DNA of 49,792 nt from an uncultured archaeon. Its GTDB lineage: Archaea > Aenigmatarchaeota > Aenigmatarchaeia > QMZP01. Location of the stretch: assembly GCA_964607835.1 (NCBI GenBank), contig CAZSLL010000006.1, positions 20,003 through 69,794 on the forward strand, in the 5' to 3' direction. Each line of letters begins with the position of its first letter. Positions within the stretch are counted from its first letter, which is position 1. A program made the translations under genes and the position numbers. The notes beneath the pieces were generated by a model, which saw only the letters and a list, made by a program, of their open reading frames with translations, was not told the DNA's origin and did not search any database. Shown in pieces: positions 13,315 to 35,255 of the stretch.

Positions 13315-13770
13315 ATGAGCGATGCAAAGGGCCCTTTCACAAGGAAGATAGAGAAGGCAACTAAATATCTTAGTGAAATGCCGTCCATAAGGGACAACGC
13401 CTACAGGGTGATTCTCAACTACATGGGAGACCTGGCTGAAGAGTGCCTCCCTGAGGGATGCAGGAAAATGGTTAGTGAGAACATGATTCCCTGCGCAAGG
13501 AGTCACATAGGCAGAGAAGGTGACTACAGATGGCTTCTGGATGACGTCCAAAGCTGCGAGGAATACATGTTCGAGAAATTCTGCCCTGAGCGGCTCGAGG
13601 AACTGGGCGACGGGCTTTTCGTCTTTTACATGAAGCCCCTTGAGGAAGGGGAAGAGCGCGGATCAAACACAGTCGAGAAGGACGGTACTGAATACAGTTT
13701 CAGCATGGTCATTGACCCCAGCGCGAAAGAGGACAGGACAGAGCACATCCCTGCAAAGAGCCTGCATTAG
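13315..13770 (+). CDS. Hypothetical protein
   Basis: 151 aa ORF following 12751-13293. No recognised motif. Confidence 0.55.
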   Translation: MSDAKGPFTRKIEKATKYLSEMPSIRDNAYRVILNYMGDLAEECLPEGCRKMVSENMIPCARSHIGREGDYRWLLDDVQSCEEYMFEKFCPERLEELGDGLFVFYMKPLEEGEERGSNTVEKDGTEYSFSMVIDPSAKEDRTEHIPAKSLH

Positions 13771-14390
13771 TGCCTTAGAGGAACAAACGAGACAGCCATG
13801 AGCCTTTCCTGATTTAGCTTACCTTCTTCCTTCCTTGCCATGATGAGCTCCTGGCGGGTTCCACTGTTAATCGGGACAGCCAGTGTTCCGCCCTCCTTGA
13901 GCTGTTCCTCCCAGGCATGGTAAATCCTGTCAGACCCGCAGGCCACCAGTATCTTGTCAAAGGGGGCGTGCTCCTCCAGTCCCCTGGACCCGTCGCCTGC
14001 GATCATGGTGACGTTGCTGATGCCCGCCTTCCCGAGACTCTTCCTGGCCTTCCTGACCAGGCTATCCTCGAGCTCTACTGAGAAGACCTCCTTCACGAGC
14101 CTGGAGAGCACCGCTGCCTGGTAGCCTGAGCCCCCTCCAACCTCAAGGACGCGGTCTTCCCTGCGGGGCTCCAGGAGTTCGGTCATTATGGCCACCATGT
14201 GCGGGGCTGATATTGTCTGGCCCTGTCCTATGTGAAGGGGCTCGTCAGAGTAGGCGTTTTCCCTCTCCTCAGGCGGCACGAACTCCTCCCGGGGGATATG
14301 CCTCATGGCACTCTCTACCTTCCCGGTCCTGATGTAGCCCTCCTTTCTCAGGGTATCCATCAGGGTCCTCTTTTTATCATCCAGGCTCAT
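13767..14390 (-). CDS. pcm: Protein-L-isoaspartate O-methyltransferase
   Basis: PREEFV, AYSDEPL, GQTISAPHMVA, VLEVGGGSGY and FVPL motifs. Confidence 0.95.
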   Translation of the reverse strand: MSLDDKKRTLMDTLRKEGYIRTGKVESAMRHIPREEFVPPEERENAYSDEPLHIGQGQTISAPHMVAIMTELLEPRREDRVLEVGGGSGYQAAVLSRLVKEVFSVELEDSLVRKARKSLGKAGISNVTMIAGDGSRGLEEHAPFDKILVACGSDRIYHAWEEQLKEGGTLAVPINSGTRQELIMARKEEGKLNQERLMAVSFVPLRH

Positions 14391-14416
14391 AATATTCACT
14401 ATGAGTGTGGGGTTTT

Positions 14417-15106
14417 ATGAATTGCGACCTGTGCGTCAGGACAGCTGAGCGGGACAAGGCCCTTGAGATGGGGAGGCAGCTGGGACTCGGACTGGTTTGC
14501 CTGGTGGTCCGGCCAGAGGAACTCCCTGCCCTGAGAAAGGCCGCTGAGAAGAGGGACTGGAGGCTCAGGCCCAGGCTGGCTGCGGGGGCGGACGCCAGCT
14601 CGCCCAGGCCCGATGAGATGAGGAAGCTCGCCAGGAGGCTCAGGAAGAGAGCGGATGTCATAGTGGTGAAAGGGGGCACGGACGAGCTCAACAGGGCTGC
14701 TGTTGAAACCCCGGAGGTGGACATACTCATGGAGCACGAGGTCCAGGGAAGGCCCGGCATAAACCACGTCCTTGCCAGGCTGGCCAAGAGCAATGGGGTG
14801 CACATAGCCTTTGACTACAACAAGCTGGTGACAAGTTACAGGCTGGGAAGGATTCAGGGGTTCTCGTCAATGGTGGGCTCAGCCAGGGAGGTGCGGAAGG
14901 CCAGGGCGCCGTTTGTCCTTACCTCAGGGGCAATGGACCCGTGGGGCATGAGGTCAGGCTCTGAGCTCCTTGCCCTGGGAAAGCAGATGGGCTTTACAGA
15001 GGGAGCGGCCATGTCTGGGGTCTCTGACTCCATCGTAAGGGAGAACAGGAAGCGCCTCTCAGGCAGCTGGGTCATGCCCGGGGTGGAGGTCGAGCGGGAA
15101 GAGTAA
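14417..15106 (+). CDS. rnp3: Ribonuclease P protein component 3 (Rpp30)
   Basis: VVKGGTDELNRAAVE..VDIL, GINHVLARLAKSNGVHI and LTSGA...MRS motifs. Confidence 0.9.
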   Translation: MNCDLCVRTAERDKALEMGRQLGLGLVCLVVRPEELPALRKAAEKRDWRLRPRLAAGADASSPRPDEMRKLARRLRKRADVIVVKGGTDELNRAAVETPEVDILMEHEVQGRPGINHVLARLAKSNGVHIAFDYNKLVTSYRLGRIQGFSSMVGSAREVRKARAPFVLTSGAMDPWGMRSGSELLALGKQMGFTEGAAMSGVSDSIVRENRKRLSGSWVMPGVEVEREE

Positions 15107-32792: not shown

Positions 32793-32994
32793 GGGCCCAT
32801 AGCTCAGTCTGGTTAGAGCACTCGGCTCTTAACCCTGTTTTGTGGAGCAATTCAGGGAAAGAAACCGAGGTGTCGGGGGTTCGAAACACGCTTTTTTCAA
32901 GAAAAGGCGTGGGCCAAAAGGAGCATCGCTCCGCCAAAGGCTCCGCTCGCTTCCGTTTGAACGGGAGCTGGCGTCGGCAATCCCCCTGGGCCCT
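32793..32994 (+). tRNA. tRNA-Lys(CTT) with two introns: 37/38 (32832-32863) and 59/60 (32886-32980)
   Basis: Cloverleaf assembled by hand: acceptor GGGCCCA/TGGGCCC, D-stem GCTC/GAGC, anticodon stem CTCGG/CCGAG, T-stem GGGGG/CCCCC, T-loop TTCGAA|T. TATA-like TTTATATA upstream. Confidence 0.85.
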
Positions 32995-33034
32995 TATCCC
33001 ATTCTTCCGGTGACGTTTCTAGCAGAAGCGGTTA

Positions 33035-33123
33035 CTGTCCCTTCACGACCCAATGCAATTGATGAAGGCCGTGCAATAATGCTGTCCCTTCACGACCCTA
33101 TAGTATTGATGAAGGCCGCGCAA
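33035..33123. repeat. Tandem 47-bp-period repeat (2 copies) with CCTTCA/TGAAGG hairpin
   Basis: CTGTCCCTTCACGACCC-n6-ATTGATGAAGGCCGYGCAA at 33035 and 33082. Confidence 0.9.
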
Positions 33124-33145
33124 CAGAGCCCTCGTAAGAAAGATT

Positions 33146-33294
33146 AAAAGGCAGCTATCTGGGCTTCCCCCTCGAAAGGAGTACCACCCAGACCGTGGGA
33201 GGGCTTGACTTCCGTGTTCGAATTTCCCCACCCCGCGCATCCGCGCGGAAACGGCGTATGGGAACGGGTAGACACCTCCACTTTGGCCGCCATT
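33146..33294 (-). rRNA. rrf: 5S rRNA with 35-nt insertion/intron (33223-33257) in loop C
   Basis: Minus strand reads GGCGGCCAAAG...ACCCGTTCCCAT[35 nt]TTCGAACACGGAAGTCAAGCC...GGTA...GAA...GCTGCC. Helix I GGCGGC/GCTGCC, TTATAAAA box ~25 nt upstream. Ends approximate. Confidence 0.9.
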
Positions 33295-33349
33295 GTCATT
33301 CTAATGTAAAGAGGGTTTTATAAGCTTTGCGCTAACCGGGTGAAAAAAG

Positions 33350-33535
33350 CGCCCAGGCCGGGATCTTCAGAACCGTTTTGTATGCGGTAGCGTTCTTTCC
33401 GCGAACGCTTTTGGGCGTTTACCGGTCCAAAAGGGTTCATTTGAACCCGGGTCATGGGAGTGACAGTCCCATATGCTAGGCCGATGTGCACCACCTTCCC
33501 CTTTTCAGGGAAAGCAGGTACTACACTACCTGGGC
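33350..33535 (-). tRNA. tRNA-Asp(GTC) with two introns: D-loop 15/16 (33484-33520) and T-loop 59/60 (33364-33439)
   Basis: Acceptor GCCCAGG/CCTGGGC plus discriminator G, anticodon arm TGGGA-CTGTCAC-TCCCA, T-stem CCGGG/CCCGG. Perfect BHB at the T-loop. Oligo-T follows the 3' end. Confidence 0.92.
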
Positions 33536-33656
33536 ATTTATATGAAAACCTGACCATGTCAGGGTCAACGGCTGAATTTATTAGATTCGCTTAGTATTTA
33601 AATAGGTTTCATACAGTGAAGCCTTTTTATACCCTTCATGCATATCCTTTCTAGAT

Positions 33657-33814
33657 GGGCCCGTAGCTCAGTCTGGTTAGAGCACCGGGCTTTTAACCAT
33701 GTGCGTTAAAAGCGTCGAGGTTCCCGTGGGACCTGTGAGAAGATACCCGGGTGTCGCCGGTTCAAATGCATTCCTGGACGCGTTCCAGGAGGCTTGGGTT
33801 TCCGGCCGGGCTCA
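33657..33814 (+). tRNA. tRNA-Lys(TTT) with two introns: 37/38 (33696-33744) and 59/60 (33767-33800)
   Basis: Acceptor GGGCCCG/CGGGCTC (one G-U), anticodon stem CCGGG/CCCGG, T-stem GCCGG/CCGGC. BHB central helices CTTT/GAAG and TTCA/TGGG. TTTTTATA box upstream. Confidence 0.88.
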
Positions 33815-34577
33815 TTACCCTTTCAATAACAGTACTCGAAAAACAAAATCCAATATGATTCCACAAAAATGACTTTAGTATATTTTTAGGATTGCTGAAA
33901 CCTATATCTGAACACCATTTTTCGTATCCCTTTGCGCCTGGTATGAAGAGTTGGTGGCTCACAAAAGGCTTCTTTGTTTTAGGGTGGATATTCTGCAAGT
34001 CAAGATAAACATTCGGATGAAACCTCAATTCTTCCAGCAATTCTTTTGAGTCCAGTAGTAGATTCTTGCTCGCTGTAGCAAACTTAATCACAGGGTAATA
34101 GTATTTCCTGTTTCCTCTGCTCTTGAAGCAAAATGAGAAATCTGTGTCACCAAGACCTCTCAAAAAATATGCTTTTTTGCTATATGCAGCATCCTTGATT
34201 ATGTCAGGTATTCCGATTTCTTTTTTGGGTCCAATTGGCAGACCGCAGATTTTGTGATAATAATTAACGAGGCCCTTGGAATATGCCCTCAGATAGCAAA
34301 CATGTATCGGAGGTCTGAGATAAAATCCGAAATTCAACCCGAATAAGCTGTATTTTAGATTCCTTACATGGTCTTTAAGATAATGATAATCAGATATCAG
34401 ATTTCCAGTAACTCCTATTTGATAATCTGTTGCATGAGGCTTTTTATCTATGCCTATGTTTCCATCGCCTGTCATTATGCCAATGTCTTCAGCAAGGTAA
34501 TTTGATATTTTATCAGGAAATCTCAGTCCTCTTGACATGTCTTTTTTGCTGGTTTCGATTGTCGAAAAATCCAACAT
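33762..34577 (-). mobile_element. Free-standing double-motif LAGLIDADG homing endonuclease gene
   Basis: Two LAGLIDADG-like helices (LAEDIGIMTGDG and YFLRGLGDTDFS). AT-rich. No intein splicing motifs seen. Confidence 0.85.
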
Positions 34578-34691
34578 ATAGAGATTTTCCGATAGTAAAT
34601 ATAATGCTATGGATAGGACCGTTCCGCTATTCCGCTATAATCCGGGCCCATCAAATACTTTTATTACTTGCTTCGAATCCTCAATGATAGT

Positions 34692-35049
34692 ATGGCTAGC
34701 ATAAGGCCGGACACGACCATTGGCGAGCTACATGATTTCGTCCGCCACGTCTACGGAAAGCCGAATGACCTGCATTTCGACATCCATGACATGCTCAATA
34801 ACGTACAGAGATTCGCAATGAGATGTCTCAAGGGCATCAGGAAGGGTGACAGGGAAAAGACAAAGAGGAATATTTCAAAAAGTGATAGATGAAGCGGCAG
34901 ACCTGTTCTCTCACTATCTCTGCGTCTTCAATTCGCTTGGAGAGAGCATCGCTCATAAGCTGTCAGTTGTGTTCACCAATGACTGCCACGAATGCGGGAA
35001 AGCGCCGTGCGAATGCAATTTCACATCTGTGGTCAATTATGGATCATAA
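34692..35049 (+). pseudogene. Internally deleted, frameshifted MazG-like (all-alpha NTP pyrophosphatase) gene
   Basis: N-terminal fragment (ELHDFVRHVYG..ND..F...LKGIRKGD) stops at 34892. A C-terminal fragment in another frame has DEAADLFS...CHECGKAPCEC. Confidence 0.6.
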
Positions 35050-35194
35050 TCTATTCCTTTCTTTAACGGAAAACCAGTTAATTTTATAAACCCCCTCTTC
35101 AATTATTGTAGGCTGATGCAACCAAAGCATTGTTTAAACCATAACCAGGATTAGCTGATAATCGCTCTGCAGAGGCGTCGAGATGCCCCGGAGC

Positions 35195-35255
35195 GTGTGC
35201 CGGTGCGCAGCACCGGAAGGACAGAAGAGTGTGCCGGTGCGCAGCACCGGAAGGA
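35195..35255. repeat. Two identical 27-bp repeats containing palindrome CCGGTGC-GCA-GCACCGG just upstream of TrmB-family gene
   Basis: GTGTGCCGGTGCGCAGCACCGGAAGGA at 35195 and 35229. Confidence 0.9.

Follow-up and report, generated by a model that had tools for sequence, protein, structure and literature searches.

A free-standing LAGLIDADG endonuclease gene docked on a tRNA-Lys gene: a probable homing cassette of DPANN archaea with tRNA genes as landing sites

The window is a stretch of 49,792 nucleotides from an uncultured archaeon of the Aenigmatarchaeota. The source genome (G000) comprises 1.18 Mb in 48 contigs and contains archaeal radA, EndA and Orc1/Cdc6 genes; a DPANN archaeon is the most likely host. 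The window contains a tRNA-Lys(TTT) gene on the forward strand at 33657-33814, interrupted by two introns. One is a 49-nt intron at position 37/38 of the anticodon loop (33696-33744 on the same strand, register +/-1), placed by the fold and by the ARAGORN call on the spliced gene. The other is a 34-nt BHB-type intron at position 59/60 of the T-loop (33767-33800, forward strand), for which comparison with other introns adds to the same two lines of evidence. Unspliced, the gene is called by neither ARAGORN nor Rfam, and relaxed ARAGORN settings return only noise on the unspliced locus. When both introns are taken out in silico, ARAGORN calls tRNA-Lys(ttt). The MFE fold of the T-arm has a BHB-like 3-nt bulge at the 3' splice point and a relaxed 5' bulge, and its overall stability is ordinary (z -1.5). 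With a bulge at the splice junction and a gene for the EndA splicing endonuclease in the genome, the 59/60 insertion is an archaeal BHB tRNA intron. It is akin to introns in the tRNA-Thr(GGT) gene of the same genome and in the tRNA-Lys genes of G001, G024 and G036, which lack a homing endonuclease gene (HEG). The acceptor stem of the active tRNA has a real G2-U71 wobble, as the first-pass annotation had described. A single contig of the probable source sequencing run covers 33384-35224 with 0 differences, a check that is not independent of the assembly.

On the reverse strand, at 33762-34577, lies an intact gene for a free-standing, monomeric, double-motif LAGLIDADG endonuclease of 271 aa, recognized from its open reading frame, Pfam, alignment and a structural model. 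The last 53 nt of the gene are antisense to tRNA-Lys(TTT). They run through the 3' strand of the tRNA and the whole 34-nt intron, and the stop codon is the antisense of T55-C56-A57 (33762-33764); these coordinates of the first-pass annotation hold. The GC content of the HEG is 36-39%, against about 55% for most flanking genes. Pfam LAGLIDADG_3 matches the protein at E=7.7e-5. All 19 aligned proteins have the aspartates at the two catalytic positions, D38 and D146, and the glycine after motif 2 is replaced in most members of this alignment. The predicted model has a pLDDT of 91, with a low-confidence C-terminal tail. A fold search with it retrieves the endonucleases of inteins, I-AniI, I-DmoI and I-OnuI at E of about 1e-8 to 1e-10, and WhiA and maturases are also among the matches. 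Two LAGLIDADG helices, the acidic residues and the duplicated alpha/beta fold of the model thus predict a LAGLIDADG monomer, an enzyme class defined by a site-specific cut that leaves a 4-nt 3' overhang. The closest titled relatives come from Ca. Aenigmatarchaeota and then from Woesearchaeota; a scan of genome contigs with this single protein gave no match. The gene is free-standing, as it lies outside any intron or intein, has a putative promoter of its own, and is preceded by a complete tRNA end. Since the stop codons of homologues fall at many places in or near tRNA genes, and the tail is of low confidence, the read-through of the 59/60 intron looks incidental. Loss of a native stop codon probably produced the antisense overlap as a side effect, and the overlap may help to keep the gene.

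Upstream of the HEG, a TATA-like element on the reverse strand (34596-34604) lies about 20-27 nt from the start codon, the same spacing as at other copies of the box described next, and the promoter appears to be leaderless. Beyond the TATA-like element stands a promoter-upstream box (34609-34637), in which TTCCGCTA occurs twice as an 8-bp direct repeat (34622-34637, 16 bp) with a conserved flank. The box is followed on the forward strand by AATCCGGGCCCA at 34639-34650, a displaced and decayed old tRNA-Lys 3' end according to alignment with an empty site and to remnants in the family. The original flank is marked by a frameshifted and truncated copy of a 228-aa gene of G001 at 34692-35049, also on the forward strand, with 72% identity over 61 aa; a Pfam search of this broken gene gave no match.

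The empty site is found in G001, a genome of the same genus. There, the 3' end of tRNA-Lys(CTT) runs directly into the same downstream gene, which is the junction that the first-pass annotation had proposed to look for in a relative without the HEG. The G001 tRNA end and its flank align with 34639-34720, and its T-stem is the same as that of the window's tRNA-Lys(TTT). Because the empty allele has the anticodon CTT where the window's gene has TTT, the comparison holds only if the two Lys genes have also exchanged their 3' halves. A search of the 450 nt past the HEG start for the last 15 nt of the tRNA gives a best match with a chance probability of p=0.083, which is not significant alone. The displaced duplicate described earlier is present at its stated position, and the match by itself may be chance. 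The synteny with G001 supports the reading of 34639-34650 as the leftover old end. Its 'AAT' may instead belong to the promoter flank, because a similar 'TAA(T)CC' flank follows the box at a RecB-like gene that is not a HEG. The 4 nt absent from the remnant can be explained without a nuclease overhang, as they belong to a tandem CCGG/TCGG repeat in a remnant that no longer functions; slippage could have removed them as easily.

The same layout recurs in the protein family. Its 112 homologous loci were reduced to 83 non-redundant ones with a stop codon and enough flank; a fragmented locus (L098), loci without a stop codon or with less than 120 nt downstream, and near-duplicates were left out. 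With an intron-tolerant aligner, a tRNA gene was called at the stop codon in 66 of the 83 loci (36 antisense, 30 sense; 17 none), compared with 5 of 60 control windows. A check for systematic antisense overlap with tRNA 3' ends had been suggested earlier; docking on tRNA genes recurs across the family, in both orientations. On a tree of 72 proteins carrying 11 isotype labels, set by eye, 12 isotype changes are needed, against a mean of 45.2 for shuffled labels. Removal of the tRNA-overlapping tail raises the number to 13. Host kinship and vertical descent inflate this clustering, so that it shows isotype fidelity and not cleavage specificity. The 22 Lys-docked proteins form one group across hosts of the Aenigmatarchaeota family and of Woesearchaeota type, with support that drops to 73 in the tail-free FastTree tree. 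In Patescibacteria-type loci, related proteins lie just upstream of tRNA-Ser. Lys-clade HEGs are patchy, exceeding 300 bits in 3 of the 91 genomes of the order, and intron-free tRNAs are docked as well (L073, L048, L078). The source genome has only three HEG-adjacent tRNAs (Lys, Thr and Met); a HEG match at its tRNA-Lys(CTT) comes from reading on into the adjacent locus and was scored as no HEG. No claim depends on the unpublished genome G209. At the Thr locus (C1:35130-35960; L256 1130-1965) the HEG overlaps the 5' end of tRNA-Thr(GGT) in sense, and a tRNA-Thr 3'-end remnant lies on the opposite strand past the box. This arrangement suggests that the tRNA was turned around between the two arms of its acceptor stem, a step that could connect the antisense layout with the sense one.

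Old-end remnants at p<0.02 are present in 8 of the 48 antisense loci tested, where about 1 is expected, and the other 40 have no significant remnant; this set retains L099 and L101 despite their wrongly extended ends. The remnant of L095 is an exact 20-nt copy, and the new and old ends of this locus are identical from T55 on, with a T-loop that has no intron. The closest filled and empty alleles are those of the metagenomic locus L074 and the genome G024. On the tRNA side, 123 nt that include both introns are identical in the two, as are 76 nt of flank. Between these sides, L074 has 858 nt with the HEG and G024 has 29 nt, so that 29 nt were replaced without duplication of the tRNA. This near-identical pair shows recent mobility, in a direction, gain or loss, that the pair itself does not tell. 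Filled and empty alleles thus exist among close relatives, as the site in G001 also illustrates, and two other tRNA-Lys alleles retain just a C-terminal stub of the HEG. Gain, decay and loss are the pattern expected of homing elements, and the stubs, remnants and filled/empty pair fit it. Among the four contig sets of one study, in which contigs lose rare alleles, no allele joint missing only the HEG was seen. HEG-bearing alleles have no evident target difference in common; T71 occurs in three related HEG or stub alleles and in 8 of 61 HEG-less ones. Mismatches in the T-stem and acceptor stem were considered as footprints of end replacement and rejected, as the same U-U mismatch is found in HEG-less tRNAs of other isotypes.

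T-loop introns are widespread in the source genome. A census by eye of its 40 tRNA genes found them in 30 and none in 8, with ends not recovered in 2, and they form families common to several isotypes. The T-loop intron is present in 5 of the 22 Lys-clade HEG alleles, compared with 36 of 61 HEG-less tRNA-Lys alleles of the order, a sample picked by tRNA pattern across the order with 2 ends not recovered. It is absent from both stub alleles. HEG-less alleles could have kept an intron after loss of the HEG, which is compatible with these counts. In collaborative homing, the target is split by a neighbouring intron that is found together with the HEG; the counts of 5/22 and 36/61 run against such co-occurrence. 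At individual loci the intron state differs between the two ends. L081 has an intron-less old end, and its new end has a 17-nt intron akin to the introns of L089 and L091. Conversely, among 11 remnants inspected by eye, five (L054, L078, L092, L102 and L056) have AAAG just before position 60 and an intron-less new end. In the tRNAs sampled on the Woesearchaeota side, some rows of which are other isotypes, GAAAG before T60 ends 5 of 5 T-loop introns. The AAAG remnants are therefore suggestive of an intron-bearing old end replaced by an intron-less new end. Together with L081, they suggest that the cassette may overwrite the T-loop intron state in both directions. The 59/60 intron is independent of the HEG at the locus and is not supported as part of an engine.

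Copies of the promoter box number 15 in the source genome and 0 in shuffled DNA, and nearly all lie 42-75 nt before a start codon. The weight matrix was made from the same 15 matches that it counted, and the real tests are the shuffle and a control with the reversed pattern. Nine of the 15 boxes head LAGLIDADG ORFs, namely that of the window, those at tRNA-Thr and tRNA-Met, and six of the 23S rRNA region. Others head the radA operon and the gene of a RecB-like PD-(D/E)XK nuclease, the latter also in G029 and G031. The box is found in 18 of 47 genomes of the family, although not in G001, and stands upstream of radA in 9 of those 18, one of which is a single-contig genome with only two box copies. 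Woesearchaeota-type homologues have a different repeat, TGTCCAGTG, at the same position. In all 3 of the loci that could be parsed, out of 5, radA is preceded by this repeat at a distance of 595-650 nt; the repeat also heads MCM-like, PD-(D/E)XK, DUF763 and radical-SAM/HhH genes. An Orc1/Cdc6 paralogue has a box copy at its 3' end in three genera (G000, G034 and G025). In the source genome (region C10:13538-14740), this gene (13653-14636) has a full box 3' and a pair of inverted half-sites upstream.

The box thus has the position of a regulon element, a fixed place upstream of the TATA element of radA and repair genes. By analogy with Orc1-2 of the Sulfolobales and the haloarchaeal radA motif, we infer a DNA-damage or recombination regulon that HEGs may have captured. 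In the available parts of these sources, the DDRE of the Sulfolobales is bound by Orc1-2 (PMC9738581), and an 11-bp repeat motif lies upstream of haloarchaeal radA1 (PMC2556686). As far as these texts go, such damage boxes resemble the one described here in being short repeated motifs upstream of the radA TATA element, about 45-50 nt from the start codon. They differ in sequence, and the present box also heads most of the HEGs. A role of the box as a recombinase arm site was lowered in rank after radA was found behind the same box. Contig C11 (L249 3300-12900) contains six LAGLIDADG ORFs in or around the 23S rRNA gene, each headed by a box and one of them antisense; these would be rRNA-intron HEGs with private promoters. 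On contig C17 (L257 766-900), a TATA element and a degenerate box lie 45 nt behind tRNA-Val(CAC) with no ORF, a possible footprint of a lost cassette. In L251 (2816-4063, reverse strand), a box heads a 416-aa ORF without a Pfam match, in which two LAGLIDADG-like helices are seen by eye.

Taken as a whole, the locus is probably a homing-endonuclease cassette of DPANN archaea, free-standing and with tRNA genes for landing sites; we consider this the best full explanation and hold it with reasonable though not high confidence. The proposal that such a cassette provides a substitute 3' end, with the old one left over, has gained support from the docking statistics, the G001 site, the 8 of 48 remnants and the L074/G024 pair. 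Along the tRNA strand, the order is the tRNA 5' part, the replacement 3' end, the antisense HEG, the TATA element, the box, the old 3' end and the original flank. The enzyme would cut in or beside the cognate tRNA gene of HEG-less alleles. Repair from the donor would be one-sided homologous, pairing through the tRNA on one side and joining the flank on the other, and the T-arm and 3' end of the donor, with or without an intron, would overwrite those of the recipient. The box would tie HEG expression to the RadA recombination programme of the host, probably via the Orc1/Cdc6 paralogue. T-loop introns would be passengers in either direction and not the basis of immunity. A wider reading is an undescribed radiation of isotype-specific cassettes in DPANN archaea and CPR bacteria, rewriting the tRNA 3' arm under RadA timing, acting as two-way intron vehicles and possibly descended from HEG-encoding T-loop introns. 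We regard this as conceivable and put it forward tentatively.

The first-pass annotation saw in the locus a possible engine for spreading introns. The enzyme would cut the intact T-loop, the 59/60 intron would confer immunity, and homing of the HEG would spread T-loop introns by collaborative homing. Remnant junctions often fall at T-loop positions 55-60 beside the box (at the locus itself, L095, L093 and the tRNA-Thr of the source genome), and the intron gained with the new end of L081 is what such an engine would produce. However, the HEG-less allele of the same genus, in G001, has a related 59/60 intron, the very finding that had been named in advance as speaking against the idea. The intron is identical in the filled L074 and the empty G024, it is found in 5/22 Lys-clade HEG alleles versus 36/61 HEG-less ones, and 5 of 11 remnants look intron-bearing in the old end and intron-less in the new. 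Furthermore, 30 of 40 tRNAs of the source genome have T-loop introns of cross-isotype families, and only 3 tRNAs have a HEG. We consider the immunity and engine model unlikely. Slightly less probable still is an origin of the cassettes from giant HEG-encoding T-loop introns, in which a second copy of the last exon before the HEG made it free-standing. The GAAAG before T60 in 5/5 Woesearchaeota-side introns, the AAAG in 5/11 remnants and the same promoter box at the HEGs of the 23S rRNA region agree with it. The AAAG match is short in AT-rich DNA, though, the T-loop is intact in other remnants (L095, L081 and L093), and no tRNA with its sole 3' end beyond the HEG was seen, with 17/83 loci lacking a tRNA call at the stop codon.

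Two other explanations are less probable still. The locus could be a non-autonomous mini-island moved by a tyrosine recombinase in trans, with the duplicate as att, the box as arm-type site and the HEG as cargo. Duplications of tRNA 3' ends are a hallmark of archaeal integrases, as stated in the available part of PMC3293823, and the box often abuts the remnant. Yet no integrase lies near the locus, in agreement with the earlier description, and the sole PF00589 match in the genome is a XerA-like gene of 202 aa on another contig. Core genes, radA among them, have the box at a fixed distance from their TATA element, the remnants differ in length, and the enzyme clade follows the tRNA isotype, all of which makes such an island very improbable. 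The least probable account is a domesticated LAGLIDADG protein, a regulator or a splicing helper for intron-rich tRNAs, inherited vertically. WhiA and maturases among the fold matches and a second motif without the usual glycine in most members would suit it, but the patchy spread, decayed stubs, filled/empty pair and low GC content do not, and intron-free tRNAs are docked too (L073, L048 and L078).

Known systems share parts of this arrangement. Fungal mitochondrial HEG cassettes, such as I-OnuI in rps3 and that of Allomyces atp6, insert near a gene end, and a new end displaces the old one. Their targets are protein-coding organelle genes and the HEG is in sense; the present cassette, by contrast, has tRNA genes as targets and its HEG in antisense. 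The archaeal monomeric enzymes I-DmoI, I-Tsp061I, PI-PfuI and TliVMA, which come from rRNA introns and inteins, have the same two-motif fold as the predicted enzyme and likewise carry an acidic residue at each catalytic position. They share 8-22% identity with it, and the present gene, in contrast, has no intron or intein around it, has its own promoter and is tRNA-docked. In the accessible text of PMC2988022, the GIY-YIG enzyme SegB of phage T4 is listed as cutting tRNA intergenic DNA; like the HEG here, its gene stands free in a region of tRNA genes and belongs to no intron or intein. Intronless homing, spread by break repair with co-conversion, is described there and is proposed alike for the cassette (PMC2988022). 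As far as that text goes, SegB-type sites are separated from the gene by hundreds of bp or more, whereas the LAGLIDADG gene here overlaps a single tRNA and supplies its end, and SegB belongs to a phage, whereas the cassette is on a cellular chromosome (PMC2988022).

Archaeal tRNA integrative elements and the intron-gain model for Caldiarchaeum tRNA-Thr, in the part of PMC3293823 available, likewise have a reconstituted tRNA and a fragment left behind. In the Caldiarchaeum model the incoming half can bring an intron, as here (PMC3293823). Archaeal tRNA islands are driven by an integrase or recombinase according to the same part, in contrast to the integrase-free cassette, and the terms 'LAGLIDADG' and 'homing' have 0 occurrences in PMC3293823. 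The available parts of PMC6125680 and PMC11270868 deal with HEGs of rRNA introns only. A literature search, in which most subscription journals were not covered, found no description of tRNA-docked LAGLIDADG cassettes or of regulon boxes before HEGs. The tRNA-docked, free-standing HEG with a promoter box shared with radA is real and, within the scope of that search, new.

On how archaeal tRNA introns arrive, a 2026 preprint on Asgard archaea, in the part available, considers copying, mobile elements and reverse transcription and finds none of them to be a general route (10.64898/2026.10.13.758758). The cassettes would represent one concrete, assayable route for overwriting a tRNA 3' arm together with its intron state. 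By the counts given above, T-loop introns in the source genome cannot in general have come from such cassettes. The coupling of selfish nucleases to the radA promoter box points, by analogy, to an undescribed DNA-damage regulon in DPANN archaea. The isotype-specific clades would be a natural set of predicted meganucleases against conserved tRNA sequences.

The surroundings of the locus contain further insertions and repeats. The T-loop of the neighbouring tRNA-Lys(CTT) gene (32793-32995) is interrupted by a 95-nt intron from a second recurrent family. Compared with G034, the 5S-tRNA-Asp block that separates the two Lys genes is inverted. Its tRNA-Asp gene (33348-33535, reverse strand) has introns in the D-loop and the T-loop, and many tRNAs of the source genome, as well as many relatives, share the T-loop intron (about 33383-33455). 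The 5S rRNA gene (33146-33294, reverse strand) has a 37-nt insertion that folds as a hairpin and is possibly a BHB intron. Downstream of it, at 33030-33125, a unit of about 50 nt occurs twice in tandem. Beyond the broken gene, an exact 30-nt tandem duplication (35195-35255) lies at the 5' end of a TrmB-family gene.
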